A stretch of 35,255 bases of DNA. It comes from Casimicrobiaceae bacterium (lineage in GTDB: Bacteria; Pseudomonadota; Gammaproteobacteria; Burkholderiales; Casimicrobiaceae). Shown here in pieces: positions 3,870 through 24,354 of this stretch. The translations under genes were made by a program, and so were the position numbers. Location of the stretch: the NCBI GenBank assembly GCA_039935875.1, contig JBDTJK010000286.1:1-35255 (forward strand). The letters run 5' to 3'. Every line of letters starts with the position of its first letter. Positions within the stretch are counted from its first letter, which is position 1. The notes below the pieces were generated by a model, which was not told where the DNA came from, did no database searches, and saw only the letters and a program-made list of their open reading frames with translations.

Positions 3870-4041
3870 TTCGGCTATATACGCCTTCGGGTCGGTGGCG
3901 GCCTAATGGGACTTAGCCGGGCGTCGAGCGCCACTGCGAGGCTTGTGGTGGCGGTGGGTTCGTGGCGCGCACCGCGCCGGATATTTGTGCGGATCCGGCG
4001 CGGACGCGGGTCCGGCGATCGCAACCTTGGAGGTCACAATA

Positions 4042-4269
4042 GTGGATTTTGACAAGGAACTGGACGCGCGTGGGCTGTCCTGCCCGCTGCCGATCCTCAA
4101 GACCAAAAAAGCGCTGAACGACCTTTCCACCGGTCAGGTGCTGAAGGTGGTGGCGACGGATCCGGGGTCCGTCAAGGACATGCAGGCGTTCGCGACCCAG
4201 ACCGGTAATCCGTTGCTCGCGTCGGCGGAGGAGAACAAGACCTTCGTCTTCTTCATGCAGAAAAAGTAG
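4042..4269 (+). CDS. tusA: Sulfur carrier protein TusA
   Basis: GTG start at 4042 after GGAGG; MDFDKELDARGLSCPLPILKTKKAL...ATDPGS with the CPxP motif; 75 aa. Confidence 0.93.
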   Translation: MDFDKELDARGLSCPLPILKTKKALNDLSTGQVLKVVATDPGSVKDMQAFATQTGNPLLASAEENKTFVFFMQKK

Positions 4270-4354
4270 CCGGCAGGTAGCCGGTTCGCGCGCTCGCGCC
4301 AACCGTTCGCATGTGCATGTGTCAGCCTGAATGAGCCGAACGGAAAGGATACCC

Positions 4355-4993
4355 ATGGAAATGCAAGCCGAAAAGAGGGCTGTACTCCCGACCGACGCCG
4401 ATCTCGACCGCGCCATCGCCGAGCGCGTCGACGCGATACTCGACGAGCGGCTGGAGGCGAAGCTCGCGGCGCTCAAGGCGGCCAAGGTGCCGTCGATGAC
4501 CATCATCGCCACCAAGGGAACGCTGGACTGGGCATATCCGCCCTTCATCCTGGCGTCGACCGCCGCGGCACTCGGCTGGAACGTGTCGATGTTCTTCACG
4601 TTCTACGGGCTCGAGCTCCTCAAGAAGGACCTGTCCTCGTTGCGCGTGAGTCCGCTCGGCAATCCCGCGATGCCGATGAAGATGCCCTTCGGGCCGGAAT
4701 GGTTCAAGTCGATCGGCTGGAAGATCCCGAACGTCGTGCAGTCGAATGTCCCGGGATTCCAGAAGTTTTCCACCACGATGATGAAGCGGACGATCAGGAA
4801 CAACGGCGTGGCGGAAATTGCCGAGCTGCGCGAACTCTGCGTCGAGGCCGGCGTGAACCTGATCGGTTGCCAGATGACCGTCGACCTGTTCGGATACAAG
4901 CGCAAGGATTTCGTTGCCGACGTCACGGAATATGTCGGCGCCGCGAGTTTCCTGCCGATGGCGCGCGACGCCGATGTGAGTCTGTTCATTTAA
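4355..4993 (+). CDS. dsrE2: DsrE2-type sulfurtransferase (DsrE/F/H-like)
   Basis: TKGTLDWAYPPFILASTAAALG..FFTFYGL, PLGNPAMP, GCQMTVDLFG and GAASFL motifs; follows tusA. Start placed at the ATG after AAAGGA. Confidence 0.88.
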   Translation: MEMQAEKRAVLPTDADLDRAIAERVDAILDERLEAKLAALKAAKVPSMTIIATKGTLDWAYPPFILASTAAALGWNVSMFFTFYGLELLKKDLSSLRVSPLGNPAMPMKMPFGPEWFKSIGWKIPNVVQSNVPGFQKFSTTMMKRTIRNNGVAEIAELRELCVEAGVNLIGCQMTVDLFGYKRKDFVADVTEYVGAASFLPMARDADVSLFI

Positions 4994-5055
4994 GAGCGCG
5001 GTCCGGAGGACGGCGCAGTGCGCCGAAGTCAACGAGTTTTCCCTAGGGAGCTAAC

Positions 5056-6393
5056 GTGAAAACAAGAATGATTGTGGCGCTCGCTGCGATGGTGCCGTTC
5101 GCCGCACAGGCGACTGACGGCTATTTTGCCAATGGGTACGGCATGAAGTCGCTCGGCATGGGAGGTGCCGCCTCCGCCGTTGCGATGGAACCCTTTTCCG
5201 GCGCGGTGAATCCGGGGTCGGCGGCGTTCATGGACAATCAATGGCAAGTGGGAATGTCCTGGTTCTCGCCGCGCCGCAATGCATCGCGCTCGGATTCCGG
5301 GCCCGCCAGCATCGATGGCTATGCCGACAGTGGCAGCAATAATTTCTTCATTCCCGAAATCGGCATCAACTGGAAGTACAGTCCGAATATCGCGCTCGGC
5401 CTGACCGTTTACGGGAACGGCGGAATGAACACCGACTATCCCGGCGGGCAGATCACCGCGCAGAGCGCGTGCTCGCAGTTTCGCGGCGGGCAGGGCGCGC
5501 CGTACAACCTTTTATGCGGCAGCGGCAAACTCGGCGTCGATCTGATGCAGGTCATCTTCGCCCCGTACGCGTCGTGGCAGTTCACCAAGGGTCATTCGGT
5601 GGGCATCGCGCCGCTGATCGCCTACCAACGGTTCTCGGCCGACGGCCTGCAGGCGTTCGACAACCCGGGGTTTTCCTCCAGCCCCGGCAATGTGACCAAC
5701 AACGGCCACGACGACTCCTGGGGTGCCGGCGTGCGCATCGGCTACATGGGCCAGCTCACCGAGCAGTTCGCGGTGGCCGCCACGTATTCGACCAAGATCA
5801 GCATGGGCAATTTCGACAAGTACAAGGGATTGTTCGCACAAGGTGGCGGCTTCGACATTCCGTCGAGTTTCACCATCGGCACGGCATTGCGTCCGGTCAA
5901 GCCGCTGCTGGTCGCGGTCGATTACCAGCGCATCTTCTACGATGACGTGCCGTCGGTGAACAACCCGAGCGCGTCGATCGGGTACTGCCCGCCGCCGCCG
6001 ATGGGTGGCGGTCAACCGCAGTACTGCCTCGGCGCCGACAGTGGAGCGGGCTTCGGCTGGCAGAACGTCGACGTCTGGAAGATCGGCGTCCAGTACGACA
6101 TCAGCGACCAGTTGACGATTCGCGGCGGCTACAACCACACGGACAACCCGATCCGCTCGCAGGACGTGACCTTCAACATCATCGCGCCGGGGGTGGTCCA
6201 GAACCAGTGGACGGCGGGTGCGACGTGGCGCCTCGACAATGTCTCGGAGATCACCGGCGCGTTCATGTTCGCGCAAAACAAGTCGGTCACCGGCTCGAGC
6301 CTCCTGGTTGGATTCGGCCTGCCGCAGACGACGACCGAAACCATCGCGATGAAGCAATACCAGTTCGGGCTTGCCTACAACAGGAAGTTCTGA
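5056..6393 (+). CDS. Outer-membrane transporter, FadL/TodX/OmpP1 family
   Basis: Signal peptide (AQA-T), hatch TDGYF..GYG.KS.GMGG...NPG, YGNGGMNTDY, amphipathic beta strands and C-terminal Phe. Confidence 0.88.
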   Translation: MKTRMIVALAAMVPFAAQATDGYFANGYGMKSLGMGGAASAVAMEPFSGAVNPGSAAFMDNQWQVGMSWFSPRRNASRSDSGPASIDGYADSGSNNFFIPEIGINWKYSPNIALGLTVYGNGGMNTDYPGGQITAQSACSQFRGGQGAPYNLLCGSGKLGVDLMQVIFAPYASWQFTKGHSVGIAPLIAYQRFSADGLQAFDNPGFSSSPGNVTNNGHDDSWGAGVRIGYMGQLTEQFAVAATYSTKISMGNFDKYKGLFAQGGGFDIPSSFTIGTALRPVKPLLVAVDYQRIFYDDVPSVNNPSASIGYCPPPPMGGGQPQYCLGADSGAGFGWQNVDVWKIGVQYDISDQLTIRGGYNHTDNPIRSQDVTFNIIAPGVVQNQWTAGATWRLDNVSEITGAFMFAQNKSVTGSSLLVGFGLPQTTTETIAMKQYQFGLAYNRKF

Positions 6394-6399
6394 GGTTCG

Positions 6400-6441
6400 C
6401 CGACCCGCGTCGGACGCGGCGGGTGTCATCACGCCCGCCGC
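6400..6441 (+). promoter_or_regulatory. Tandem GC-rich hairpins between the FadL-like and SCP2 genes
   Basis: CCGAC-CCGC-GTCGG (6400-6413) and GCGGCGGGTGT-CATC-ACGCCCGCCGC (6416-6441). No U-tract follows, so more likely mRNA-stabilising than a terminator. Confidence 0.4.
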
Positions 6442-6457
6442 ATACTTGGGAGAATGT

Positions 6458-6976
6458 ATGCGCGCCAATGCGTTGATCGCCTCGCTGATCGCGATGGCGT
6501 TCGCCGGACCGGTTCTCGCCGCGCCGATGCTAATGTCGGGCGATTGGGCGAAGGACGCCTGCGATGCGTGGAACAAGGACCCCGTGCTTACCGACAAGCT
6601 GGTCGAAAGCGGCTGGGTCAAGAACGACAAGGGGCGCGGCTTCAAGGTCATGCAGGTCTACCGCTCCGACTGCGGCGACAAGCCCACTGCCGAAATGAGG
6701 ATTTCCCTCAAGGATGGCAAGGCGGCATGCGTCTACGGGGGAGCCATCGAAACCACGAAATTGGACGGCGACGCTGATTACGTCATGAAGGCCGAGTCGG
6801 CCCGCTGGGTCGAAATGGGCAAGGGTGAATATGGCCCGATGGCGGGAATGATGTTCAGACGCCTGGGCTTCGACGGACCGATGATGGAGGCGATGGGCAA
6901 CATGGGACCGTTCGAGAACTTCCTGCTGCTGGTCGGAAAGGTACCCTCCGACACGACCGCTTGTCCGCGCGATTGA
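6458..6976 (+). CDS. Exported SCP2 (sterol-carrier/lipid-binding)-like protein
   Basis: Start trimmed to MRANALIASLIAMAFAGPVLA (signal peptide). ADYVMKA...W..MGKGEYGPM.GMM..RL.FDGPMMEAM matches the SCP2 C-terminal pattern; four Cys. Confidence 0.72.
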   Translation: MRANALIASLIAMAFAGPVLAAPMLMSGDWAKDACDAWNKDPVLTDKLVESGWVKNDKGRGFKVMQVYRSDCGDKPTAEMRISLKDGKAACVYGGAIETTKLDGDADYVMKAESARWVEMGKGEYGPMAGMMFRRLGFDGPMMEAMGNMGPFENFLLLVGKVPSDTTACPRD

Positions 6977-7040
6977 GGCTGTCGCTGCGACGGCGGCATT
7001 GCGCAAGCTGATAACGCCTGCGTGATCGCGAAAGCGGCCG

Positions 7041-7433
7041 CTATCCAGGTTCGGGCGCGCCCTGCCAGAGCATGTCGTAGCTCAGTTCCTGGCTGTCGAT
7101 GCACATCTCGGCCAGCGCCGCGAATTTTTCGTTGAAGATTTTGTCCGCGTGCGAGCGTTCGTGCTGCTCGAACGAGCGCCAGTAGGTGACTATCGCGATA
7201 TGCGCGTCGGCGGGCTTGATCTCGCCCAGCGAGCCTTCGGGCGAGGCGAAGCCCGAGAACTTGAATACCTGTCCGCCGCAGAAACCGCCCTTCTCGTTCC
7301 CGTAGGTGTCCTTGACGACGTTGCACATCTCGCCGATGGCGAGTTCGACATCTTCCATTGCCACGTCCGGCTTGAGCTTGACGGTGTTGAACAGCATCTT
7401 GGCGCCGAAAGGGACGGCGAGCGCTTCGAACAT
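7041..7433 (-). CDS. Small dimeric alpha/beta-barrel protein resembling one domain of sulfur oxygenase reductase
   Basis: GGAGG RBS; motifs EMCNV, GGFCGGQ, TYWRSFEQHERSH and ELSY (see findings). The CDS is well supported; the function is inferred. Confidence 0.7.
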   Translation of the reverse strand: MFEALAVPFGAKMLFNTVKLKPDVAMEDVELAIGEMCNVVKDTYGNEKGGFCGGQVFKFSGFASPEGSLGEIKPADAHIAIVTYWRSFEQHERSHADKIFNEKFAALAEMCIDSQELSYDMLWQGAPEPG

Positions 7434-7659
7434 GTGGACCTCCGACGGCGTTGGGGAAAGGCCTATGATCGCGCCAAAATGGCGCTTTCACAAATCGCTC
7501 TCGCGTCCGGCAGGTCATCGAGCAGGCGTTTGGCAGCGAGGAGCGGCCCCGGGCAGGCCGAGCCTCGCATGTCGAGGGTTAGTTGAGGTTTTGGATACTT
7601 CGTCGTGACCATCAGACTTCGCCAGCGAAGATGTAGCCTGCTTATTATAAGCTTCCGCG

Positions 7660-8718
7660 ATGGGCAACGATCTTCGAAGACTCACCGTCGCGGTGCAGCG
7701 CAACTGCGACATCTCCGATGCCTGCTACGCGGGCGACTACGGGCTCTGCACGTTTCTGCTGAAGATGCGCGAGTACTATCGCTGGGAGCGTGGATTGCCG
7801 TTCAGCCACACCCTTTCCAGGGACGAACTGGGCGCATGGCTGGACACGCGCGAGCGCGCATGGAACGACCTCGAAGCCGAGGCATTCGCGCCGCTGCCAC
7901 TTGCCGGCGGAGCGCTCGATCCATTTGACGCGGATACCGCCAATCGGGAACTGCTGCCGCAGGGTTGCGTGTACAGCGCGGGCTATGGGCGCTTCCGCAA
8001 GCCGCTGTTCTTTCTTGGACGGCTGCTTCGGATCGAGGAGCGCGCAGGGCTGACCATCCTGATTTCTTCGCGCGAACTCGCGCGCGAGTTGGCCGCGCCG
8101 CCCGCAATGCTCCAGGGCCGCACTGTTTTCGTTCGCATGGAGTCGGTCCGCCGTTACCTCTGGGAAAAAATCGAGGAGTGGCAATTGCACAAACGGGCCA
8201 ATGCCATGGCACGAGCGCTTGCGAGCTACGATTTCGACGGCGACGCCGATGAAGCATTGCGGCGCATGGCCGACAACGAAGCGGAATCCATGATCCTGCA
8301 CGAGGTGGGCGAGGCAATGGCGGGCGAGCGCCTGGGCGTTGCGTGGCAGGAAATGACGACGGCGGCGGCGCGCACGCGCGGCGAGCCCGCATTGCGCGCG
8401 ATCCGCGACCTGCTCGCGGACTGCCTGTCGACACTGCCGGCACTCCTCGCGCGCGCCAACCCGGCGGCGTTGCATTTCCATTTTGCCTGCCTCGACGCGC
8501 CGCGGCGCCAGATGTTTCCGCAGGCGCTCGAAGCCTACGAGGAGTTTCTCCGCGATGGCACGACGCATCGGCTAGCGACGGTCGTGAACGAGGGCAGCGA
8601 ACGCTGGCTGGCGACGGCCGGAGAACTGCTCGCTCTCGACCCGGCCAGCCGGGAGTCGGCGTTGTACGCGCTGCTCGACAACTGCGAGGCGCAGGCGGGT
8701 ACGGCCGTCATTCGCTAG
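7660..8718 (+). CDS. dsrS: DsrS-like (Sfum_1244-type) conserved protein
   Basis: VQRNCDISDA...YGLCTFLLKMREYYRWE, YSAGYG, ILHEVGE and RAIRDLLADCL motifs, recognised from memory as the family found in Dsr-containing bacteria. Size (352 aa) fits DsrS; the symbol is tentative. Confidence 0.6.
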   Translation: MGNDLRRLTVAVQRNCDISDACYAGDYGLCTFLLKMREYYRWERGLPFSHTLSRDELGAWLDTRERAWNDLEAEAFAPLPLAGGALDPFDADTANRELLPQGCVYSAGYGRFRKPLFFLGRLLRIEERAGLTILISSRELARELAAPPAMLQGRTVFVRMESVRRYLWEKIEEWQLHKRANAMARALASYDFDGDADEALRRMADNEAESMILHEVGEAMAGERLGVAWQEMTTAAARTRGEPALRAIRDLLADCLSTLPALLARANPAALHFHFACLDAPRRQMFPQALEAYEEFLRDGTTHRLATVVNEGSERWLATAGELLALDPASRESALYALLDNCEAQAGTAVIR

Positions 8719-9298
8719 CGGGAGCCGCATCCACAGTCATATCCACCAGTTTGCGCACGAGCGGCAGCATTTCCGGGGCTTCGACGTCCATGACTTGTTC
8801 GACCACCCACTTGTTGTCACCGCTCGCCATCGCGTCAGATACCTTGGATGCAAGAAATAGCAGGCAGGGAAGCGGCGGTTCGCCATCGCGAAACACGAAC
8901 TCGGCGTACTCGCCGAAGCGCGCGTTGAGCAGGGCGACAAAAGGCTCGCGGTACTCGCCAGGGCCGAAGAGGTCCTGCTGGTTGTTTTCCATGGTCGCCG
9001 CCAGGTGGCGGGCCACTTCGCCGATGAGCGTGGCGCGGTCGGCTTCGTTCAACCTGCCGTACACCGCCCGATCGACGAGCTGGACGAGAAAGGCGATGAA
9101 CTCGGCGAGGACGTCGGTGACCATCCGGTCGGAACCGAATCGGAAGCCATCCCTTTCCATGTGCTTGAATATCTCGAGCGCGATTTTCCACACGTTCGCG
9201 CCGATTACGCTGGCGCGGTCGGCGAGGGTCCGGGGTTTCTTGTTGCGCCAGCGGGTTTTGACGAGAGCGATCGCCGGTCGACTGCTGATGATGGCCAT
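8708..9298 (-). CDS. Conserved hypothetical all-helical protein (196 aa)
   Basis: Protein-like composition (EFIAFLVQLVDR, LNARFGEYAEF, KWVVEQVMDVEAPE); converges on the dsrS-like gene with an 11-bp overlap. Confidence 0.75.
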   Translation of the reverse strand: MAIISSRPAIALVKTRWRNKKPRTLADRASVIGANVWKIALEIFKHMERDGFRFGSDRMVTDVLAEFIAFLVQLVDRAVYGRLNEADRATLIGEVARHLAATMENNQQDLFGPGEYREPFVALLNARFGEYAEFVFRDGEPPLPCLLFLASKVSDAMASGDNKWVVEQVMDVEAPEMLPLVRKLVDMTVDAAPASE

Positions 9299-9348
9299 GG
9301 GGTAGTGGGCTTCAACTGATTCGGCGATAATAGCCCCGCGGAGGAAAC

Positions 9349-9786
9349 ATGCCGGGACTGGACATCGAAATGGCGAGCGGCGTTGCCGCTTTCGAGGCCA
9401 AGGAATTCGCGCGGGCGATGCAACTGCTGCAGCCGCTGGCCGAGCGGGGCGATCCGCGCGCGCAGTATCGCGTCGCGATCATGGCGCAGGTAGGGCTGGG
9501 AATGGTGAAGAATTGCGCGACGGCGGTCAGGTGGATGCGTGCCGCCGCCGAGCAGGGGGATGCGCTGGCGCAGCACGGCCTGGGATTCATGTATTTCCAG
9601 GGCGAATGCACGAAATCCGACCCCGCCGAAGCCGCGCGGTGGTTCAGGCTTGCAGCCGATCAGGGACTCGCCGGATCGCGATCGATGCTCGCGTCGATGT
9701 ACGAAAAGGGCGTGGGTGTCGTCCGCGACCCCGTCGCGGCAGCCCACTGGAAGGTGCTGGCCGAGAAGGACTTCGACGCTTCCTGA
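9349..9786 (+). CDS. Sel1-like repeat protein
   Basis: GGAGG RBS; repeats AERGDPRAQY, AAEQGDALAQHGLGFMYFQGE and AADQGLAGS..LASMYEKGVGV; no signal peptide. Confidence 0.88.
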   Translation: MPGLDIEMASGVAAFEAKEFARAMQLLQPLAERGDPRAQYRVAIMAQVGLGMVKNCATAVRWMRAAAEQGDALAQHGLGFMYFQGECTKSDPAEAARWFRLAADQGLAGSRSMLASMYEKGVGVVRDPVAAAHWKVLAEKDFDAS

Positions 9787-10109
9787 TGCGCTTCAAGATC
9801 GTCATCGCGGAGCAGGTCTACGCGGTCGACGTGCCGGATGACGTGCTGCGCCAGGCGGCCGAGTTCAATGCCAAGCTGGACCGCGATATGGATCGGGGCT
9901 GGCAGATGAGCCGGGAGTTCGTGCAGCGGCCCGACCAGCTGCAGCGTTGCCAGATCGTCGCGGACAAGCTCCTGACCAGCATCATCAACGGCAACCAGAC
10001 GACCGCGATGCTGATGGCCGCGTACATTGCCCTGCGCGTACCCGGCACCACCGGCGTGGATGTGGACGCGTCCGGCGAAATGCAGAACACCGCGCTGCTG
10101 CATGGGTGA
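9786..10109 (+). CDS. Conserved hypothetical protein (107 aa)
   Basis: TGATG coupling to the Sel1 gene; MRFKIVI...KLDRDMDRGWQMSREFV..PD..QRCQIVADKLL...GEMQNT. Confidence 0.78.
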   Translation: MRFKIVIAEQVYAVDVPDDVLRQAAEFNAKLDRDMDRGWQMSREFVQRPDQLQRCQIVADKLLTSIINGNQTTAMLMAAYIALRVPGTTGVDVDASGEMQNTALLHG

Positions 10110-10112
10110 GCG

Positions 10113-10706
10113 ATGACGTTTTCCAGCGCGCGCATCCGCGAAGTCAAGCCGCTCAGCTTCATCTACGAGATGATCGGAGCGCTTCCCGCCGACGTCTGCA
10201 TCGAGGCGATCCGGCGTTTCGAGGACCGCGCCGACCAGCAGGTTCCCGGTCGCATCGGCCAAGCGGGCGAAGAGATGCCAGAGGTCAAGCGTTCGACGGA
10301 CCTGCGCATCAGCGGGCGCGACGACTGGTGCGACATCGACCGGACGCTGTCGCAGCAGCTCGTCGCCACGTTCAATGAATTCGCGCTCGAATTCCCGTTC
10401 TTTGCCAGCAACGCGTTCAAGGACATCGGCTACAACCTGCAGCGGACGCTGCCCGGCGAGTATTACCACTGGCACGTCGATGCCGGACCCGGACCGTTTC
10501 GGGATCGCCAGTTCGTGGCGATCTGGTACTTGAACGATGTTCCGGGGCCGGGCGGCGGGACCGAATTCCCGCTGCAGGACGTGGTGATCCGGCCCCAGCA
10601 GGGCAAGCTCCTGGTGTTCCCGCCGTTCTGGACCCACGTGCATCGCGGCGTCATCCTGGAACACGGCGTCAAGTACATTGCCACCACCTGGATCTGCTTC
10701 GCCTGA
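10113..10706 (+). CDS. Fe(II)/2-oxoglutarate oxygenase, prolyl-4-hydroxylase-like
   Basis: YHWHVD, IWYLNDV..GGGTEF, GKLLVFPP.WTHVHRG and KY motifs. Confidence 0.87.
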   Translation: MTFSSARIREVKPLSFIYEMIGALPADVCIEAIRRFEDRADQQVPGRIGQAGEEMPEVKRSTDLRISGRDDWCDIDRTLSQQLVATFNEFALEFPFFASNAFKDIGYNLQRTLPGEYYHWHVDAGPGPFRDRQFVAIWYLNDVPGPGGGTEFPLQDVVIRPQQGKLLVFPPFWTHVHRGVILEHGVKYIATTWICFA

Positions 10707-10718
10707 ACCAGCTGACCA

Positions 10719-11393: not shown

Positions 11394-11403
11394 GGCAGGC
11401 GCG

Positions 11404-11703: not shown

Positions 11704-11705
11704 GC

Positions 11706-12020: not shown

Positions 12021-12026
12021 CGCCGG

Positions 12027-15030: not shown

Positions 15031-16335
15031 ATGTCCGACCTGCAAAAGCCACCCAAAAATCCCGAGCGGCACAGCACCTACGTTCCTTCGGAAAGGAAGT
15101 CGACCAAGGCGTTCCATCCGACGCCGATGCTCGACCAGCTCGAAAGTGGCCCCTGGCCGAGTTTCGTCACTGGGCTGAAGCGGCTCGCGCACGACAACAA
15201 CATGATGGTCGACCTGCTGGGCCAGCTCGAGCATTCGTACAAGACGCGCATCGGTTACTGGAAAGGCGGCACGGTTTCGGTGTTCGGTTACGGCGGGGGC
15301 ATCATCCCGCGCTTCTCCGAAGTCGCCAGCATGTTCCCCGAGTCCAAGGAATTCCACACGCTGCGGGTGCAGCCGCCGGCCGGCAACCACTACACGACCA
15401 AGGTGCTACGCCAGCTCTCCGACTCCTGGAGCAAATGGGGGTCCGGGTTGATCGCCTTCCACGGCCAGACCGGCAACATCATGTTCATCGGCACCACGAC
15501 GGAGAATACCCAGCACTTCTTCGACGAAATCAACGAGTACGGTTTCGACCTGGGCGGCGCGGGTCCCTGCGTGCGCACGGCCATGTCTTGCGTGGGCGCG
15601 GCGCGCTGCGAGCAGTCGTGCACCAACGAGCACCGCATTCACCGCACGCTGGTCAACAATTTCATCGACGACATGCACCGGCCGGCGCTGCCCTACAAGT
15701 TCAAGTTCAAGGTCTCGGGCTGTCCCAACGACTGCATGAATTCCATACAGCGCGCGGATTTCGCGGTGATCGGCACCTGGCGCGACGACATGCAGGTCGA
15801 CCAGAAGGAGGTCAAGGCCTATGTCGACGGGCACGGCCGCAAGTACACGATCGATAACGTGATCGCGCGCTGCCCGACCAAGGCGCTGTCCCTCAACGAC
15901 GACGACACCCTCGAGGTGGACAACAAGAGCTGCGTGCGCTGCATGCACTGCATCAATGTCATGACCAAGGCGCTGAAGCCCGGCAAGGATCGCGGAATCA
16001 CGCTGCTCATTGGCGGCAAGCGCACGCTCAAGATCGGCGACACCATGGGCACGGTGATCGTGCCGTTCATGAAGATGGACACCGACGAGGATTACGACAA
16101 ACTGCGCGACCTTGCCGCGACGGTGATCGATTACTGGGCGGAAAACGGGTTGGAGCACGAGCGCTGTGGCGAGATGATCGAGCGGATCGGGTTGGCGAAT
16201 TTCCTGGAAGGTATCGGCATCGACGTTGACCCGAACATGATCGCCCATCCCCGTACCAGTTCCTACGTCCGCCTGGACGACTGGGATCAGGAAGCGCAGA
16301 AGTGGATCGACCGCCACCCGCAGCCGGTTGCCTGA
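15031..16335 (+). CDS. dsrA: Dissimilatory sulfite reductase alpha subunit (oxidative type)
   Basis: TPMLDQLESGPWPSFV, YWKGG, siroheme-[4Fe-4S] motif CVGAARC...FKFKVSGCPNDC and ferredoxin CVRCMHC. Start at the ATG after GGAGGA. Confidence 0.98.
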   Translation: MSDLQKPPKNPERHSTYVPSERKSTKAFHPTPMLDQLESGPWPSFVTGLKRLAHDNNMMVDLLGQLEHSYKTRIGYWKGGTVSVFGYGGGIIPRFSEVASMFPESKEFHTLRVQPPAGNHYTTKVLRQLSDSWSKWGSGLIAFHGQTGNIMFIGTTTENTQHFFDEINEYGFDLGGAGPCVRTAMSCVGAARCEQSCTNEHRIHRTLVNNFIDDMHRPALPYKFKFKVSGCPNDCMNSIQRADFAVIGTWRDDMQVDQKEVKAYVDGHGRKYTIDNVIARCPTKALSLNDDDTLEVDNKSCVRCMHCINVMTKALKPGKDRGITLLIGGKRTLKIGDTMGTVIVPFMKMDTDEDYDKLRDLAATVIDYWAENGLEHERCGEMIERIGLANFLEGIGIDVDPNMIAHPRTSSYVRLDDWDQEAQKWIDRHPQPVA

Positions 16336-16339
16336 GGAG

Positions 16340-17443
16340 ATGGCCGTGGCCCAAGCACAGGTAGCAGTGGAAAGAAAGAAGATGCGCACGCCGATCGAAA
16401 GCGGGTGCCCCGACGGCGTGCAGTACATGCATCCGCTGATGGTCAAGAACTTCGGCAACTGGAAATACCACGACCGCCCGCGACCAGGAGTGCTGCATCA
16501 CGTCGCCTACTCGGGCGACGAGATCTGGACGGTGCGCGTCGGCACGCAGCGCCAGCTCGGTCCCTACGAGATCAACCTGCTGTGCGACATCATCGACAAG
16601 TATGGCGAAGGCCATGTGCGATTCACCATCCGCTCGAACATGGAAGTCATGGTGTCCAGTTCCGACAAGGTCGGCCCGTTGATCCAGGCCTTCAACGACG
16701 CGGGTTACCCGGTCGGTGGCACCGGCAACTCGGTGACCATGATCTCGCATACGCAGGGATGGCTACACTGCGACATCCCCGCCACCGATGCCTCGGGCGT
16801 GGTGAAGTCGCTGATGGACGAACTCTACGAGGAGTTCATCAAGGAGGAGATGCCCAACCGCGTGCACATCACCACCTCCTGCTGCCAGATCAACTGTGGC
16901 GGACAGGGCGATATCGCGATCAACATCCAGCACACCAAGCCGCCGAAGATCAACCATGACCTCGTGGCCAACGTGTGCGAGCGCCCGTCGGTGGTTGCGC
17001 GCTGCCCGGTGGCGGCGATCCGGCCGGCGATCGTGAACGGCAAGCCGTCGCTCGAAGTGGACGAGAAAAAATGCATCTGCTGCGGCGCGTGCTATCCCCC
17101 CTGCCCGCCGATGCAGATCAACGATCCGGAGCACTCAAAGCTCGCCATCTGGGTGGGCGGGAAGAACTCGAACGCGCGCTCCAAGCCGATGTTCCAGAAG
17201 CTGGTCGCGGCCGGCCTGCCCAACAACCCGCCGCGCTGGCCCGAAGTCGCCGCAGTGGTGAAGAAAATCCTCTACACCTACAAGAAGGACGCGCGCGACT
17301 GGGAGCGGGTCGGCGACTGGGTGGAGCGCATCGGCTGGCCGCGGTTTTTTGAAATGACCGGACTGCCGTTCACCAAGTTCCACATCGACAACTGGCGCGG
17401 CTCGCGTAACAGCCTCAACGCGTCGGCGCACATTCGCTTCTGA
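16340..17443 (+). CDS. dsrB: Dissimilatory sulfite reductase beta subunit
   Basis: HTQGWLHCDIP, CCQINCG, CICCGACYPPCP, NNPPRWPE and ERIGWPRFF motifs. Confidence 0.98.
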   Translation: MAVAQAQVAVERKKMRTPIESGCPDGVQYMHPLMVKNFGNWKYHDRPRPGVLHHVAYSGDEIWTVRVGTQRQLGPYEINLLCDIIDKYGEGHVRFTIRSNMEVMVSSSDKVGPLIQAFNDAGYPVGGTGNSVTMISHTQGWLHCDIPATDASGVVKSLMDELYEEFIKEEMPNRVHITTSCCQINCGGQGDIAINIQHTKPPKINHDLVANVCERPSVVARCPVAAIRPAIVNGKPSLEVDEKKCICCGACYPPCPPMQINDPEHSKLAIWVGGKNSNARSKPMFQKLVAAGLPNNPPRWPEVAAVVKKILYTYKKDARDWERVGDWVERIGWPRFFEMTGLPFTKFHIDNWRGSRNSLNASAHIRF

Positions 17444-17457
17444 GCCCCGGGCGCGGC

Positions 17458-17850
17458 ATGAAACTCGGCGTTCTGGTCAACGAGGGCCCGTACACCCACC
17501 AAGCCTCGGACACTGCCTATCAGTTCACCAAGGCCGCCTTGGCGATGGGTCACGAGATCTATCGCGTGTTCTTCTATCACGACGGCGTGAATAACGGGAC
17601 GCGCCTCACCGTTCCGCCCCAGGACGACCGCAACATCGTCAAGCGCTGGAGCGAGCTCGCCGCGCAGCACAAGCTCGACCTGGTGCTGTGCGTCGCCGCC
17701 GCGCAGCGGCGCGGATTGCTGGACGCGAGCGAAGCCAAGCGCAATGGCAAGGACGCCGACAACATCGCACCCGGTTTCCGCATCTCGGGCCTGGGCCAGC
17801 TTATCGAGGCCGGTATCCAGGCCGATCGCCTCGTGGTCTTCGGCGGTTGA
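17458..17850 (+). CDS. dsrE: Sulfurtransferase complex subunit DsrE
   Basis: NEGPYTHQASD, FFYHDGV, CVAAAQRRG (active Cys) and ISGLGQL motifs. Confidence 0.96.
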   Translation: MKLGVLVNEGPYTHQASDTAYQFTKAALAMGHEIYRVFFYHDGVNNGTRLTVPPQDDRNIVKRWSELAAQHKLDLVLCVAAAQRRGLLDASEAKRNGKDADNIAPGFRISGLGQLIEAGIQADRLVVFGG

Positions 17851-17873
17851 CGCGGTATTCAAGGGAAAAGGGA

Positions 17874-18257
17874 ATGGACGCAGAGAACGCAGAATGCGTT
17901 GCGAAGAAATTCCTCTATGTGAACCGCAAAGCGCCCTACGGAACGATCTACGCGCTCGAGTCGCTCGAAGTGGTGCTGATCGGAGCGGCGTTCGACCAGA
18001 ACGTGAGCGTCGCGTTCCTGGGTGACGGGGTCTACCAACTGGTGAAGGGTGAGGACACCAAGGGCGTGGAAATGAAGAACTTCTCACCGACCTACGGAGC
18101 GCTGGACGACTACGACGTCAACCAGCTCTATGTGGAGCAGGAGGCGATGCAGGCGCGGGGCCTGGTCGAGGCCGACCTGGTGGTGCCCGTCGAGATGGTC
18201 AGTGCCGAGCGAATGGCCGAGATCATGGAAAGCCAGGACGTGATCTTGAGCTTCTGA
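17874..18257 (+). CDS. dsrF: DsrF
   Basis: KKFLYVNRKAPYGTIYALESLEVVLIGAAFDQ and DGVYQL motifs; start trimmed to ATG 17874. Confidence 0.95.
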   Translation: MDAENAECVAKKFLYVNRKAPYGTIYALESLEVVLIGAAFDQNVSVAFLGDGVYQLVKGEDTKGVEMKNFSPTYGALDDYDVNQLYVEQEAMQARGLVEADLVVPVEMVSAERMAEIMESQDVILSF

Positions 18258-18268
18258 GGACGACAACG

Positions 18269-18574
18269 ATGACGATTTTGCATACGGTCAACAAGTCGCC
18301 TTTCGACAATGGCACCCTTCGCTGCTGCCTCAAGTTCGCCCGGCAGGGCAGCGCGGTGCTGCTGATCGAGGACGGCGTGTACGCGGCGGCGCAGGGCACC
18401 GCAGTGGCGAAAGACGTGCAGACGGCGATGGGCAGCGTGGCGATCTATGCGCTCCGACCCGATATCGAGGCGCGGGGCATGCAGAACCGGGTGATGGACG
18501 GCGTTCGCCTGGTCGACTACGAGGGCTTCGTGGATCTCGTGGTGGAGCACAGCGCCGTGCAATCCTGGATTTGA
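18269..18574 (+). CDS. dsrH: DsrH
   Basis: ILHTVNKSPF, LLIEDGVY, ARG and VDYEGFVDL motifs. Confidence 0.96.
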   Translation: MTILHTVNKSPFDNGTLRCCLKFARQGSAVLLIEDGVYAAAQGTAVAKDVQTAMGSVAIYALRPDIEARGMQNRVMDGVRLVDYEGFVDLVVEHSAVQSWI

Positions 18575-18604
18575 ATCCGATTAGAAACCAAGGGAACAAG
18601 CGCC

Positions 18605-18937
18605 ATGACGATCGAAGTGAACGGCCAGACCATTGAAACCGACGAGGAAGGCTATCTCGCGAACCGTGCCGACTGGAGCGAGGACGTTGCGAAGGAAATG
18701 GCGCGACTCGAGGACTGCGACCTCACCGAAAGCCATTGGGAAGTGATCAATTTCCTGCGCGAATACTATGAGCAGTACCAGATTGCGCCCGCGGTGCGGG
18801 TGCTGACCAAGGCGATCGGCAAGAAGCTGGGCGCCGACAAGGGCAACAGCAAGTACCTGTACGTGCTCTACCCCTACGGCCCCGCCAAGCAGGCCTGCAA
18901 GTATGCGGGACTGCCCAAGCCGACCGGCTGCGTCTAG
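18605..18937 (+). CDS. dsrC: DsrC with both C-terminal cysteines
   Basis: ETDEEGYL...YPYGPAKQACKYAGLPKPTGCV. Confidence 0.97.
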   Translation: MTIEVNGQTIETDEEGYLANRADWSEDVAKEMARLEDCDLTESHWEVINFLREYYEQYQIAPAVRVLTKAIGKKLGADKGNSKYLYVLYPYGPAKQACKYAGLPKPTGCV

Positions 18938-18964
18938 AGTGAGCCGCGACGCGCGGAGGCCCGG

Positions 18965-19714
18965 TTGTCCGCATTGACGATCGTCTACGCGCTGCTCTTC
19001 TATTTTGCCGTCGCGGTGCTGGTCGGCGGCGTGGCCAGGAAATGCTGGGTGTATGCGCGCACGCCGCAGCCGCTGAAGATCCCGATTCCGCCGGCGCCGA
19101 CCACGCGCCGCGGCGTTGCATTGCGCATGCTGATGGAGGTGACATTGTTCCGGAGCCTGTTCCGCTCCAACAAGTGGATCTGGCTCTTCGGCTGGATCTT
19201 TCATGTCGCGCTGCTGGTGGTGCTCCTGCGCCACCTGCGCTATTTCACCGAGCCAGTATGGCACTGGGTTGCGCTTGTCCAGCCATTCGGTGTCTACGCG
19301 GGATTCGTGATGATCGTCGGGCTGGCGGGATTGTGGGCACGGCGGTTTCTGGTGGACCGTGTTCGCTACATCAGCGCTCCGTCCGACCACCTGATGCTGG
19401 CATTGCTTATCGCCATCGCGGCGAGCGGCCTTGCCATGAAGTACTTCGTGCATACCGACATCGTCTCGCTCAAGGCATTCGTCCTCGGGCTGATGGTGTT
19501 CGACTGGCAGGAGCTTCCGGCCGACCCGGCACTCCTGGTCCATCTGGCGCTGGTCGCAACGCTGATGATCGTTTTCCCGCTGTCCAAGCTGATGCACGCG
19601 CCGGGCGTGTTCTTCAGCCCGAGCCTCAACCAGGTGGACGACGCGCGGGAGCGACGGCACGCGGCAGGCTGGTCGGCGCGGATCGTCCGCGCGCAACCAC
19701 CGGCGCCGAACTGA
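18965..19714 (+). CDS. dsrM: DsrM, NarI-like membrane cytochrome b
   Basis: TTG start after GGAGG; LFRSLF, GWIFH...LRHLRYF, RVRYIS..SD and H...FP.SKLMH motifs. Confidence 0.95.
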   Translation: MSALTIVYALLFYFAVAVLVGGVARKCWVYARTPQPLKIPIPPAPTTRRGVALRMLMEVTLFRSLFRSNKWIWLFGWIFHVALLVVLLRHLRYFTEPVWHWVALVQPFGVYAGFVMIVGLAGLWARRFLVDRVRYISAPSDHLMLALLIAIAASGLAMKYFVHTDIVSLKAFVLGLMVFDWQELPADPALLVHLALVATLMIVFPLSKLMHAPGVFFSPSLNQVDDARERRHAAGWSARIVRAQPPAPN

Positions 19715-19715
19715 C

Positions 19716-21206
19716 ATGGCGACGTTCGACACTCCGCCGCTCGGCAAGTATCCGGTGATTCCGCTGTTGCGCGAAGGTGTGATGGCGCACAGCAAGCCTT
19801 TCGTGGCCAAGCCCGAGATCCAGAAGGCGATCGGCTTCCCCGGCGAACTGGTGCCGGACTGGGAGCAGGTCGCGGTGAAGCGCCTGGGCGAACTGGTCTC
19901 GCAGTCGCGCGCGCTGCAGGTGTTTCTCGACACCTGCGTCAAGTGCGGCGCCTGCACGGACAAGTGCCATTACTACCTTGGAACCTCGGACCCCAAGAAC
20001 ATGCCGGTGGCGCGCCAGGACCTGTTGCGCTCGGTTTACCGCCGGTACTACACCTTCGCGGGCAAGCATTTTCCGAGGCTCGTGGGCGCGCGCGACATGA
20101 CTCGCACGGTCCTGGACGAGTGGTACAGTTACTTCCACCAGTGCTCGCAGTGCCGGCGCTGCGCGGTGTTCTGTCCCTACGGCATCGACACTGCCGAGAT
20201 CTCGATGGCGGCGCGCGACATCATGGACAGCGTCGGCGTGGGCCAGAAGTACAGCAACGAGATCATCGGCAAGGTGCACAAGATTGGCAACAACCTGGGC
20301 CTTCCCGAGCCTGCGCTGCGCGACACGCTCGATGGCCTGGAAGAGGATGTCAAGGAAGAGACCGGCGTGGATGTCAAGTTCCCGCTTGACGTCAAGGGCG
20401 CCGAGGTGCTGCTGATCACGCCGAGTGCGGATTTTTTCGCCGAGCCTCACATCGACGGCCTGATTGGATACGCCAAGGTATTCCACGCCGCGGGCATCTC
20501 ATGGACGCTTTCATCGCACGCGTCGGAAGCCGCGAACTTCTCTCTTTTCATCGGCAATCACGACAACCTGCAGAAGGTGGCTGAGCGCATCCGCGACGCG
20601 GCGCTCGATCTCGGCGTGAAGAGGATCGTCGTGGGCGAATGCGGCCACGCGTGGCGCGTCGCCTACAGTTTCTGGAACACCCTCATCGGGCCGTTCGACT
20701 TCCTCGATCCGCGCTATCCGGCGCCGCAGCATATCTGCGAACTCACCCTTGATCTGATCAGCCGCGGCGCGCTGACGCTCGACAAGAGCGCCAACGACGA
20801 CAAGGTCGTCACCTTCCACGATTCCTGCAACGTGTCGCGCGCGTCGCGCATGGGCGACGTGCCCGGTGGACAGTTCCGGATCCCGCGCGAGATCATCCGC
20901 GCCTGCGTCAACAAGTTCGTCGATATGGCCCCCGAGACCATCGGCGAAACCACCTTCTGCTGTGGCGGCGGCGGCGGTCTGCTCACCGATGACCTGATCG
21001 AGCTGCGCGTCAAGGGCGCGCTGCCGCGCATGCAGGCGCTGCAGCAGGTGGTGGAAGACCACGGGGTCAACTACATGGCCGCGATCTGCGCCATCTGCAA
21101 GAGCCAGTTCACCAAGGTTCTGCCCTACTACAAGCACCCGATGGACATGATCGGCAGCGTGCACGGACTCGTGAGCAAGGCGATCGTGCTGGAGCCGAAG
21201 CAATGA
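19716..21206 (+). CDS. dsrK: DsrK, HdrD-like Fe-S protein
   Basis: CVKCGACTDKC, CSQCRRCAVFCP, GECGH, HDSCN, CCGGGGG and CAICK motifs. Confidence 0.97.
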   Translation: MATFDTPPLGKYPVIPLLREGVMAHSKPFVAKPEIQKAIGFPGELVPDWEQVAVKRLGELVSQSRALQVFLDTCVKCGACTDKCHYYLGTSDPKNMPVARQDLLRSVYRRYYTFAGKHFPRLVGARDMTRTVLDEWYSYFHQCSQCRRCAVFCPYGIDTAEISMAARDIMDSVGVGQKYSNEIIGKVHKIGNNLGLPEPALRDTLDGLEEDVKEETGVDVKFPLDVKGAEVLLITPSADFFAEPHIDGLIGYAKVFHAAGISWTLSSHASEAANFSLFIGNHDNLQKVAERIRDAALDLGVKRIVVGECGHAWRVAYSFWNTLIGPFDFLDPRYPAPQHICELTLDLISRGALTLDKSANDDKVVTFHDSCNVSRASRMGDVPGGQFRIPREIIRACVNKFVDMAPETIGETTFCCGGGGGLLTDDLIELRVKGALPRMQALQQVVEDHGVNYMAAICAICKSQFTKVLPYYKHPMDMIGSVHGLVSKAIVLEPKQ

Positions 21207-21228
21207 TCCGCATCGATTGGAGATAGCC

Positions 21229-23229
21229 ATGCCAGCGCCAACAGGCAAACCCCCGGAAAAGAGCGGACACACGGTTCGCAAGTTCAAGGACGGTGACCAC
21301 GAGTGGGGGTCGGCTCAGGACATGATCTTCAGCGCCGACGAGACCGACAAGTGCCCGACCTATGTTCACACGACGCCGCCCTGCCAGGCGAGCTGTCCCT
21401 CCGGCGAGGATATCCGCGGCTGGCTCAATATCGTGCGCGGGGTGGAGAAGCCGCCCAAGGACACGAGCATGCAGGAGTACGCGTTCCGGCGCGTGGCGGC
21501 GGCCAATCCGTTTCCGTCGATGATGGGGCGGGTATGCCCGGCGCCGTGCCAGGCGGGCTGCAACCGCAACGAGGTGGACGACACCGTCGGCATCAACGCG
21601 GTCGAGCAGTACATCGGCGACTACGCGCTGGAAAAGAGCTTTGCGTTCGAGGCGGGGCCGGAAACCGGCAAGCGTGTCGCGATCGTGGGCGGCGGACCGG
21701 CCGGGCTCTCGGCCGCGTATCAGCTGCGCTGCAAGGGGCACGCCGTCACGCTGTTCGACGATCACGCTGAACTCGGGGGCATGGCCAAGTATGGCGTCCC
21801 CGGGTATCGGCTGCCGCGCACGCACCTGGATGGCGAGATCAACCGCATCATCGCCATGGGGGTCGAGCTCCGCATGAACACCCGCGTTGGTCGCGACACC
21901 GCGTTGAGCGAGCTGGAAACAGGTTACGACGCGGTGCTGCTCACGATCGGATGCAAGGCGGGCCGTGGCCTGCCGGTGCCGGGGGCCGACGCGCCCAACT
22001 GCATAAGCGGTGTTGCGTTCCTGGAGGCGTTCAACCAGGGTCGCCTCAAATCCGTCGCCGGGCGAGTGGTGGTGGTCGGCGGTGGTGATACCTCGGTTGA
22101 CGTCGTTTCGGTAGCGCGTCGTTTGGGCTATGCCAAGGATCTGAAGGAAACTGAGCGTCCGGAATTCGTGGTACTTGGACACACCGCGCACGATGTCTCC
22201 GCCATGGCCGCGCGCGAAGGCGCCGATGTCACTCTGATCACGATGCAGCCGATCGAGCAAATGAACGCGGCCAAGCACGAGATCGAGGACGCGCAACGCG
22301 AAGGCGTCAGCATCCGCGGCAAACTGCTGCCGGTCAAGGTCCTGCTGGACGAGAAGACCGGGCGTGCCAGGGCGCTGCGGGTGATCGAACTGGATTATTC
22401 GAGCGGTAAGCCAGTCGAGAAGCCGGGCACCGAGATGGATCTCGACGCGGATCTCATCGTATCCGCCATCGGCCAGTCCGGCGATCTCGAAGGCATGGCC
22501 GACCTGGACAACGGCCGTGGCCTGATCGCGGCCGACAAGTTCTATCAGGTGCCGAATCGCCGGGGCCTGTTCGCCTGCGGCGATATCATCCGCCCGCATT
22601 TGCTCACCACCGTCATCGGTCAGGGATCAATTGCGGCTGACAGCATCGACCAGTATCTCCAACACAGGGAAATGGTCAAAAGACCGAAGGTCGACGTGCA
22701 CCATTTCAATCTTCTGGACAAGCTGCGCGAGGTGAATCTCGAGCCCGAGGCGTTCGCGCCGCTCGATGACCGCGCGCTGCGCGAGATCGACCGCGGAGTG
22801 CGCGGCACCTCGCTCGTTGGCAAGTCGGTGGGCGGCATCGCCGTCCACAACTACGAGGATCGCAGCGCGTCGGCAGTGTGCAAGTCCGAATCACTCTTCC
22901 TCGGGCATTTTCCGCTGCTGGAACGCAACAAGCGCACCGAGATCGGGCCGTCCGCCGAAGAGGTCCTGGGGCACTTTGCGGAACGCATGGTCGGCTATAC
23001 CGACAAGCAGGCGGTCGACGAGGCGAAGCGCTGCATGAGCTGCGGCATGTGCTTCGAGTGCGATAACTGCGTCATCTACTGTCCGCAGATCGCGGTCAAG
23101 CGCACGCCCAAGGCGGAGGCCACGATGGGCCGTTACGTCTACACGGATTACGACCTGTGCATCGGCTGCCATATCTGCGCCGACGTCTGCCCCACCGGCT
23201 ACATCAAGATGGGCATGGGCGACCACTGA
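21229..23229 (+). CDS. dsrL: DsrL NAD(H):acceptor Fe-S flavoprotein (DsrL-1-like)
   Basis: PPCQASCP, GRVCPAPC, GGGPAG, GGGDT without a downstream YRR, RCMSCGMCFECDNC and CIGCHICADVCP motifs. Confidence 0.96.
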   Translation: MPAPTGKPPEKSGHTVRKFKDGDHEWGSAQDMIFSADETDKCPTYVHTTPPCQASCPSGEDIRGWLNIVRGVEKPPKDTSMQEYAFRRVAAANPFPSMMGRVCPAPCQAGCNRNEVDDTVGINAVEQYIGDYALEKSFAFEAGPETGKRVAIVGGGPAGLSAAYQLRCKGHAVTLFDDHAELGGMAKYGVPGYRLPRTHLDGEINRIIAMGVELRMNTRVGRDTALSELETGYDAVLLTIGCKAGRGLPVPGADAPNCISGVAFLEAFNQGRLKSVAGRVVVVGGGDTSVDVVSVARRLGYAKDLKETERPEFVVLGHTAHDVSAMAAREGADVTLITMQPIEQMNAAKHEIEDAQREGVSIRGKLLPVKVLLDEKTGRARALRVIELDYSSGKPVEKPGTEMDLDADLIVSAIGQSGDLEGMADLDNGRGLIAADKFYQVPNRRGLFACGDIIRPHLLTTVIGQGSIAADSIDQYLQHREMVKRPKVDVHHFNLLDKLREVNLEPEAFAPLDDRALREIDRGVRGTSLVGKSVGGIAVHNYEDRSASAVCKSESLFLGHFPLLERNKRTEIGPSAEEVLGHFAERMVGYTDKQAVDEAKRCMSCGMCFECDNCVIYCPQIAVKRTPKAEATMGRYVYTDYDLCIGCHICADVCPTGYIKMGMGDH

Positions 23230-23245
23230 CGATGGGTGACGGGGA

Positions 23246-23632
23246 ATGATGCGACTCGTCATCGGAGTCCTGGCTGCTGCGCTCGCGGTTGTCGCGCATT
23301 CCGACGCGGGCATGCCGCGACTGTCACGAGTCCCCGAGCCGGAGATCAAGATCGAGCGAGGCGACGCCTGTGTCGCGCCGACCGCGGAAATGCGCCGTGA
23401 CCACATGCAGATGCTCTATCATCAGCGTGACAGGACCGTCCGCTACGGCTTGCGCGAATCCCGCTTCAGCCTCAAGAACTGTGTCAACTGCCACGCCAGC
23501 AGGGAGACCGGCAGCGTGCTCGGCAACGACGGATTCTGTGCGAGCTGTCACGCCTACGCGTCAGTGAAGATCGATTGTTTCGAGTGCCATTCTCCGCTGC
23601 GCCAGAGCAAGGTCGCCGGGGCGCCCCGATGA
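23246..23632 (+). CDS. dsrJ: DsrJ triheme cytochrome c
   Basis: N-terminal signal/anchor, CV....EMRRDHM and three CxxCH motifs (CVNCH, CASCH, CFECH). Confidence 0.95.
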   Translation: MMRLVIGVLAAALAVVAHSDAGMPRLSRVPEPEIKIERGDACVAPTAEMRRDHMQMLYHQRDRTVRYGLRESRFSLKNCVNCHASRETGSVLGNDGFCASCHAYASVKIDCFECHSPLRQSKVAGAPR

Positions 23633-24354
23633 CCATTGAGCGCCGGCAGTTCCTGACCTGGGGCGCCGCCGCTGTCGCCATCTCCGCGCTCGCCCCGGGA
23701 TTCAGGCTGGTCGAGCTCGCGCTGGCGCGATCGCCGCAGGAAGCCGCGTCGGCGCTGCAGCGCTGGGGAATGCTGATTGACATCACCAGGTGCGTCGATT
23801 GCGACGTCTGCGTGACCGCCTGCCACGACGAGAACGCCTTGTCTGGCCACGGTCGTCCGGCGACGGACCCCCAATGGATTCGCAAGGTGGATCTGCACGA
23901 CAAGCGCACCGGCCATGCGCAGACGCTGCCGCTCATGTGCCAGCACTGCGAGGATCCGCCTTGTGTCGACGTGTGTCCGACCGGCGCCTCGTTCCGGCGT
24001 GCCGACGGCATCGTGCTGGTCGACAAGCACACCTGCATCGGCTGCCGCTACTGTGTCCTGGCCTGCCCGTATGGCGCGCGTTCCTTCGTCCACGAGACGA
24101 CAAGCGGCCAGAAGGCCGACGTGCCGCGCGGCAAGGGCACGGCGGAGTCCTGCACGTTTTGCGTGCAGCGTGTGGATCGCGACGAGACGCCCGCCTGCGT
24201 GGAGGCGTGCAACCGCGACGGCGGCAAAGCGATGGCCTTCGGCGACCTCAACGACCCGTCGACGGAGATCTACCGCCGGCTGCGCGCGGCGCCATCGAGC
24301 CAGATCCGCGCCGACCTGGCGCTCGACACCGGCGTGCGCTACCAGGGCTTGTGA
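23629..24354 (+). CDS. dsrO: DsrO periplasmic Fe-S protein
   Basis: ATGA overlap with dsrJ; Tat signal ERRQFL; CVDCDVCVTAC, CQHCEDPPCVDVCP, CIGCRYCVLACP and CTFC motifs. Confidence 0.95.
   Translation: MTIERRQFLTWGAAAVAISALAPGFRLVELALARSPQEAASALQRWGMLIDITRCVDCDVCVTACHDENALSGHGRPATDPQWIRKVDLHDKRTGHAQTLPLMCQHCEDPPCVDVCPTGASFRRADGIVLVDKHTCIGCRYCVLACPYGARSFVHETTSGQKADVPRGKGTAESCTFCVQRVDRDETPACVEACNRDGGKAMAFGDLNDPSTEIYRRLRAAPSSQIRADLALDTGVRYQGL

Follow-up and report, generated by a model that had tools for sequence, protein, structure and literature searches.

A half-size homolog of sulfur oxygenase reductase (SOR), which very probably keeps the SOR active site, was recognized in the window, i.e., the whole stretch of 35,255 nucleotides that was analyzed (contig JBDTJK010000286.1 of assembly GCA_039935875.1, Casimicrobiaceae bacterium). 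The protein has 130 aa and a single predicted domain. Its homology to the catalytic half of SOR, with the four key residues kept, was proposed in the initial annotation and was borne out by sequence profiles, HHalign, three MAFFT modes, and the invariance of these residues.

Gene prediction and genomic context

The ORF was read from the window sequence and the ORF list, and the gene is genuine (Table 1). Its GC3 is 0.85. The ORFs overlapping it at 6778-7518, 7149-7586, and 7306-7608 were rejected as the real gene, because the ribosome-binding site, the codon bias, and the homologs belong to the 130-aa frame. A search of its own genome found the gene in single copy. No terminator was recognized at the gene, and the promoter scan gave one weak site, placed on the plus strand and directed at the neighbor.

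Table 1. Positions of the SOR-like gene, its key residues, and the genes around it in the window
Feature	Position	Strand	Basis or remark
Gene for 130-aa single-domain SOR-like protein, subfamily A	7041..7433	-	predicted beta-alpha-beta-beta-alpha-alpha-beta barrel half
GGAGG ribosome-binding site, 5 nt ahead of ATG	7439..7443	-	read from sequence
N-terminal arm, residues 1-10 (...PFGAK), aligned with the linker before the SOR second half	7404..7433	-	VIA alignment, weak HHalign match, predicted dimer interface
Cys37, counterpart of SOR essential Cys31	7323..7325	-	conservation, MAFFT, available text of PMC7398979
beta2-beta3 loop, G61, S64, and G67 invariant, like the loop of the SOR second half	7224..7259	-	conserved; predicted in dimer interface
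His91, counterpart of SOR iron ligand His86	7161..7163	-	profile alignment, conservation, MAFFT
His95, counterpart of SOR iron ligand His90	7149..7151	-	profile alignment, conservation, MAFFT
Cys111, placed on SOR accessory Cys101 by 2 of the 3 MAFFT modes	7101..7103	-	conservation, MAFFT
Glu116, counterpart of SOR iron ligand Glu114	7086..7088	-	Pfam alignment, conservation, MAFFT
tusA, dsrE2, FadL-type outer-membrane protein, SCP2-like gene	3943..6976	+	context, convergent with the SOR-like gene
Sfum_1244-family (DUF6866) gene	7660..8718	+	context, divergent from the SOR-like gene
dsrA, B, E, F, H, C, K, DsrL-like flavoprotein, J, O	15130..24354	+	context

The dsr genes of the window are presumably of the oxidative type, as read from dsrEFH plus dsrL. 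The SOR-like gene had been described as sitting beside an rDsr pathway. It is near the dsr genes, with dsrA at a distance of 7.7 kb, but it lies outside the dsr operon, and its sulfur-gene neighbors are on the opposite strand. A conserved operon with the dsr genes was rejected. The neighborhoods vary; in 60 of 80 close loci, not a single one of the 20 window neighbors tested was found. In the own genome (81% complete), soxB matches are present in split form, and a full SOR was not found.

Other genes of the window were also described. At 3094-3747 (minus strand), a carboxymuconolactone-decarboxylase-like domain fused to a Rieske domain was predicted, upstream of tusA and on the opposite strand. 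A FadL-type outer-membrane channel and an exported SCP2-like protein are encoded directly 3' of dsrE2, at 5056-6976 (plus strand), and the channel was found next to the SOR-like gene again in 9 of 80 loci. As a speculation, the two proteins are candidates for a route of hydrophobic sulfur uptake. The stretch 7660-14884 holds poorly known genes, i.e., Sfum_1244/DUF6866, a Sel1 repeat gene, two 2OG-Fe(II) oxygenases, an S24 peptidase-like gene, and a TauD-like gene, and this run was found again as a block adjoining dsrA in L023 and L046. In the close relatives L017 and L030, a DsrC-like gene is placed between the SOR-like gene and Sfum_1244, upstream of the SOR-like gene; the one of L017 is without the C-terminal cysteines. 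In the window, the SOR-like gene and Sfum_1244 are 226 bp apart with no DsrC-like gene between them.

Key residues and their conservation

The motifs named in the initial annotation, i.e., C37 (EMCNV), GGFCGGQ, TYWRSFEQH91ERSH95, and E116LSY, are all present in the sequence. The SOR residues given there, C31, H86, H90, and E114, were also correct. According to the available text of PMC7398979, the iron ligands of SOR are H86, H90, and E114, and both activities are lost when any of these, or C31, is replaced by alanine. The four residues are at the same positions in a metagenomic SOR of 309 aa (L088; PF07682 E 1e-137). The spacing agrees closely, as had been noticed, with 54 against 55 residues from the Cys to the first His and 21 against 24 from the second His to the Glu.

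MAFFT aligned C37, H91, H95, and E116 with C31, H86, H90, and E114 of SOR in all three modes. It also paired N16/N9, G50-F51/G39-F40, T83/T78, W85/W80, and Y119/Y117 (query/SOR). In the profile search against PDB, C37 was also aligned with a Cys of 9rdn. For the Sulfolobales SORs, HMMER shifts the Cys by one column, and the HHalign alignment does not reach the Glu cleanly.

Conservation was followed in 129 genome-derived loci with 35-86% identity to the query, of which 101 belong to subfamily A and 28 to subfamily B. C37, H91, H95, and E116 are invariant in all of them, within 22 invariant columns, and they are intact in the 21 viral and the five Nitrospirota copies (one of the latter is also within the 129). 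H91 or H95 is absent in 6 of 20 divergent representatives hand-picked from 150 listed, several of which look frameshifted or decayed. C111 is kept in 127/129 genome homologs. C52, the Cys of GGFCGGQ, is kept in only 10/101 subfamily-A loci and was rejected as a functional residue.

Sequence relation to SOR

The query alone did not match SOR, i.e., there was no match to PF07682 at E ≤ 10 in Pfam, no chain of any kind in PDB, and no SOR in NCBIfam. A profile of 120 close homologs gave only chance DnaJ and MCM matches in PDB, and the ESM Atlas neighbors were unnamed clusters and ABM-like proteins with no SOR. When divergent members were added to the profile, SOR became the best PDB match, and 8 of 9 matches were SOR at E 0.2-1.8. 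The best PDB match of a family profile was the SOR 6m35 (E 7.8e-4), and with a 55-row alignment the top 9 of 29 PDB matches were all SOR. In the reverse direction, five of the 21 sequences in alignment A2 were matched by PF07682 at E ≤ 1. Its best match, in the divergent member P0218, covers profile positions 34-117 (E 9.5e-5) with 21.8 bits, and all PF07682 matches in the family are under the Pfam gathering cut-off of 25 bits.

In HHalign, a 29-row family profile reached 85% and a score of 37.9 against the SOR N-half, 20% and 26.6 against the C-half, and 13% and 23.3 against 11 ABM controls, although the SOR profile holds only 4 distinct sequences and these probabilities are rough. The maximum score of 60 column shuffles against the N-half was 19.0. 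The ABM score is also above its own shuffles, as would be expected from a shared fold. The family HMM gave 14.8-19.5 bits on all four SOR N-halves and at most 5.0 bits on ABMs, and a second HMMER stretch of the family profile fell on SOR 165-211. Segments PFGAK and the GF.G loop had been said to echo the second half of SOR; a weak echo was found, in the VIA alignment and a weak HHalign match.

For direct comparison with SOR, metagenomes were scanned with a short motif pattern. Of the 77 loci obtained, 11 are full-length SORs, and 63 are ORFs or fragments that belong to a different single-domain family; one is a chance ORF, and two have no matching ORF. Longer fused forms were also searched. 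Among 7,999 longer candidates, six matches were obtained, which are unrelated-looking fusions or read-throughs with none annotated as SOR, and this is weak evidence.

In a tree of 38 rows, each family was recovered as a group. The half-size family is possibly the unduplicated ancestor form of SOR, as was first suggested, but the tree does not decide this reading, because the fork joining the half-size family, the rhodanese-fused family, and the SOR N-half has a support of only 86/48 and long branches meet there.

Fold and predicted dimer

AlphaFold2 predicted one ferredoxin-like domain with four strands (pLDDT 82.6), and with a wider alignment the pLDDT was 92.9 for residues 11-125. The single barrel half proposed in the initial annotation was recovered in the models. 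In Foldseek and VIA, ABM-type proteins ranked first, with ABM monooxygenases and cyclases at Z 13-14.6. SnoaB (3kg0) was aligned over 97 residues (Z 13.8, rmsd 1.8 Å), and RslO4 (7bio) over 94 residues of the trimmed model (VIA Z 14.6, rmsd 1.6 Å). SOR was recovered by VIA at Z 11.0-11.4 and rmsd 3.0-3.3 Å, over 121-123 of the 130 residues, i.e., the longest alignments listed. VIA aligned residues 1-127 of the model to the C-terminal, non-catalytic half of SOR (residues 147-307). SOR was absent among the Foldseek matches listed for either model, and also from the best 50 of VIA once the N-terminal arm was removed. The best structural matches are generic ABM proteins, which is half of one refuting outcome named in the initial annotation. 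By its modeled fold, the protein belongs to the dimeric alpha+beta barrel superfamily, but the fold does not point to SOR in particular.

The homodimer model had a score of 0.81 against 0.00 for the best control, the runs agreed in at least 79% of contacts, and pLDDT was at least 83. For comparison, 20/30 solved homodimers and 1/23 monomers attained the mark, and the pass may come from resemblance to ABM dimers of known structure. In the predicted dimer, strand 2 is paired with strand 4, a packing described as Type-1 in the available text of PMC4835899. The predicted interface lists C37, H91, H95, C111, E116, and most of residues 51-75. In the model, the His pair is on helix 88-95 and the Glu on strand 111-120, and from this topology and the homology a facial triad of H91, H95, and E116 may be expected. 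In SOR, the distance between the Cys and the iron is 9.5-13 Å. One chain may unite catalytic residues like those of the SOR N-half with an arm and a loop like those of the C-half, as would be expected of a single chain that serves both functions within a symmetric dimer.

Comparison with known systems

Like SOR, the half-size protein has the ferredoxin-like barrel half, and the order and alignment columns of its Cys, His-x3-His, and Glu are those of SOR. Both also have GF following helix 1, T[YF]W ahead of the two His, and E-x-x-Y on strand 4, and both are linked to sulfur oxidation. However, it is not a member of the SOR family (PF07682), from which it is separated by score, length, second half, chimney, and C104. 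SOR has about 310 aa with both barrel halves in one chain and forms a fused barrel in a hollow 24-mer, whereas the half-size protein, with its four strands, is a predicted homodimer. The chimney (125-152) and C-terminal pore methionines described in the available text of PMC7398979, i.e., the elements by which SOR is supplied with S0, are missing, and strand 4 is followed by about 10 more residues. The lack of these elements speaks against SOR-like chemistry. Against the accessory C101-x-x-C104 of SOR, only C111 is present, with no counterpart of C104. The half-size family is found in dsr-bearing mesophilic proteobacteria; a full SOR was found in none of 301 genomes sampled from their phylum, a weak result since the positive control was silent. 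By inference, the protein would work like the catalytic half of SOR.

The ABM monooxygenases (PF03992; SnoaB 3kg0, RslO4 7bio, IsdG) have the same fold, size class, and predicted strand-2/strand-4 packing. The identity to the half-size protein is 6-19% in structural alignments, and the half-size protein differs in a longer beta2-beta3 loop and an N-terminal arm. The PF03992 cut-off is 23.1 bits; the query had no match, and the best family member had 19.7 bits.

Family, subfamilies, and names

The homolog search gave 3,921 clusters of 71-228 aa, and the best 120 are all unnamed or "hypothetical" and without Pfam domain. Among 1.84 billion representatives at 50% identity, 276 proteins matched, many of them fragments, which points to a family of large size with little divergence. 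Subfamily B, of the same family, has about 150 aa, is about 35-40% identical, and carries an additional helix-like C-terminal extension of about 20 residues. All four residues are invariant in its 28 loci. The NCBI label of subfamily B is "ligand-binding protein SH3". Pfam found no SH3 domain in three members, and the name looks like a mis-annotation. Subfamily B genes (L159-L172, L206-L219) often adjoin a NUDIX hydrolase gene and nuoLMN-like genes. Both subfamilies were found in three genomes, i.e., G532, G614, and G719.

The available supplements of PMC6413534, PMC8269255, and PMC7787665 had no row for the half-size family under the SH3 label. No half-size SOR family was found described in the literature searched, which lay mostly outside subscription journals and bioRxiv supplements. 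A partial copy in the class sample (G713:C6:19275-19517) has an in-frame TGA and is possibly a pseudogene.

Rhodanese-fused relative

A third family, of about 194 aa, has a rhodanese domain (PF00581, E about 1e-11) and one SOR-like half (PF03992 plus weak PF07682). Its loci include L086:204-785, L083:1010-1603, L085:745-1326, and related ones (proteins P0295 and P0334-P0451). It comprises 207 clusters, and Candidatus Bathyarchaeota is named in all five rows that name a taxon among 120 listed. These 120 members share at least 80% identity with the query domain. All of them have the His pair and Glu, 118 have the rhodanese Cys, and 116 show the barrel Cys pattern. The fusion and half-size families have the same Cys, His, His, and Glu in one barrel half. 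The fusion family differs in its N-terminal rhodanese, its archaeal hosts, and the HEE[FM]H of SOR in place of HExSH. In HHalign, it links the groups, matching the half-size family at 96-97%, the SOR N-half at 96%, and the SOR C-half at 91%; ABMs, to which it is closer than the half-size family, are matched at 94%. The fusion ties the single-domain Cys/His/His/Glu site to sulfane sulfur, independently of the rDsr profile. Bathyarchaeota are anaerobes, so the label fits an oxygenase poorly. At L104:43-1111, two PF04143 sulfur-transport genes (YeeE/YedE-type) end beside a fusion-family member.

Distribution

In the order sample (200 genomes), 24 carriers were found, of which 22 have dsrA and one more has dsrB. 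The gene is carried by 22/42 genomes with dsrA against 2/158 without it. The class sample was scored for 299 genomes; two weak matches near E 1e-4 were dropped and one genome was unscored. Here, 48 of 55 carriers have dsrB and two more have dsrA, with the gene in 48/91 dsrB genomes against 7/208 without dsrB. Fisher's p of 1e-22 for the dsrB link overstates it, because kin are not independent. All seven carriers of other classes have dsrB. Among the proteobacterial carriers without dsr, soxB was found in 5/5 tested, and the sixth has a sub-cut-off match only. The carriers among proteobacteria are sulfur oxidizers, and the link is strong at the genome level.

In the Nitrospirota phylum sample, 5/81 genomes carry the gene (G772, G791, G814, G821, and G832; L241-L249), all of subfamily A. 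None of the five has dsrB or soxB, and none of the 37 dsrB genomes, which are probably of the reductive type, carries the gene. This reversal means that the gene is tied neither to Dsr itself nor, in any strict way, to dissimilatory oxidation, and a specific rDsr role is weakened by the five carriers. A core component of rDsr was also rejected, as the gene was not found in 43/91 dsrB genomes and is present in five Nitrospirota and six proteobacterial genomes without detected dsrAB. At one Nitrospirota copy, tusA and dsrE2-like genes are present at a distance of about 7 kb.

Intact copies were also found on 21 viral contigs (L220-L240). Many of these contigs are apparently T4-like by their neighboring genes. 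One viral copy is beside a DsrC-like gene, and two are upstream of a ring-hydroxylating-oxygenase-like gene.

Proposed function and alternatives

The half-size protein is proposed to be a one-domain relative of SOR that dimerizes to a full barrel, holds one iron per subunit, and performs SOR-like chemistry on sulfane sulfur, a reading about evenly balanced between right and wrong. Two subunits are predicted to pair strand 2 with strand 4, so that the beta2-beta3 loop of each would cover the site of its partner. By homology, H91, H95, and E116 would bind a mononuclear non-heme iron. C37 may then accept a chain of persulfide or polysulfide, the donor being either polysulfide in solution or a carrier such as TusA, DsrE2, a DsrC-like protein, or a rhodanese. 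In the least certain step, O2 and iron would oxidize and disproportionate the chain to sulfite and H2S. Without a 24-mer cage, the enzyme would act in the open cytoplasm and may relieve an overflow of sulfane sulfur, or detoxify it, alongside the Dsr and Sox pathways, without being an obligatory step. Iron binding is quite likely and sulfane sulfur is a likely substrate, whereas for the O2-dependent SOR-type reaction the chance is near one half.

The same iron/cysteine site may instead work without O2 and cleave, shorten, or transfer polysulfide chains, i.e., as a sulfur carrier or a polysulfide lyase/disproportionase feeding a TusA/DsrE2/DsrC relay. This is possible, but rather unlikely. The rhodanese fusion labeled Bathyarchaeota, the sulfur-transport genes beside its L104 locus, the tusA and dsrE2 genes in the window and near one Nitrospirota copy, and the missing cage are in its favor. 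So is a DsrC-like gene within 300 bp in 10/101 subfamily-A loci (0/28 in subfamily B). However, according to the available texts of PMC7398979 and PMC5023260, SOR performs neither of its activities without O2 or without the iron ligands. An invariant 2-His-1-Glu set would be unneeded by a plain carrier, and the absence from dsrB-bearing Nitrospirota, probably of the reductive type, also speaks against it.

An accessory role in iron or sulfur supply, i.e., a donor, store, or sensor for Fe-S or siroheme clusters that binds iron without turnover, is improbable. Dsr hosts have a large Fe-S demand, and viral loci have an IscA-like gene within 1.5 kb in 10/21 cases and an IscU-like gene in 1/21. However, no IscA-like gene was found within 1.5 kb in the 129 cellular loci, and the viral neighbors come partly from related phages and are not independent.

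Least probable of all is a generic ABM-type monooxygenase, e.g., heme-degrading or cofactor-free, which is like SOR in the shared barrel fold only: SnoaB, RslO4, and other ABM proteins are the top structural matches, the sole Pfam match of the query is Monooxy_af470-like (E 0.05), and JGI labels two members "heme-degrading monooxygenase HmoA", but sequence profiles favor SOR over ABMs, the W-x5-H-x3-H motif is in 0/11 ABM controls, and the phylogenetic profile is tied to sulfur oxidizers.

Biological meaning

SOR has so far been regarded as rare, an enzyme found in thermoacidophiles and in a few bacteria. Tentatively, and with the odds against it, SOR may be the fused and caged offshoot of a much larger, unrecognized superfamily of single-domain iron/cysteine sulfur enzymes, of which the half-size family would preserve the unduplicated form. 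This superfamily would include the two proteobacterial subfamilies, the phage and Nitrospirota copies, and the archaeal rhodanese fusion. If this is true, one chain gives both the catalytic residues of the first half of SOR and the capping loop of the second half.

Correct labels would replace "hypothetical protein" and "ligand-binding protein SH3" in databases. The small, probably soluble protein would be a scaffold to probe the disputed mechanism of SOR without the 24-mer cage. The cytoplasmic mobilization and control of zero-valent sulfur in Dsr-type oxidizers are incompletely understood. The finding would add an unrecognized sulfur enzyme to about half of the Dsr-type oxidizers sampled. 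If the superfamily reading is true, this enzyme would be their missing cytoplasmic activator of zero-valent sulfur, which phages carry as a metabolic gene.
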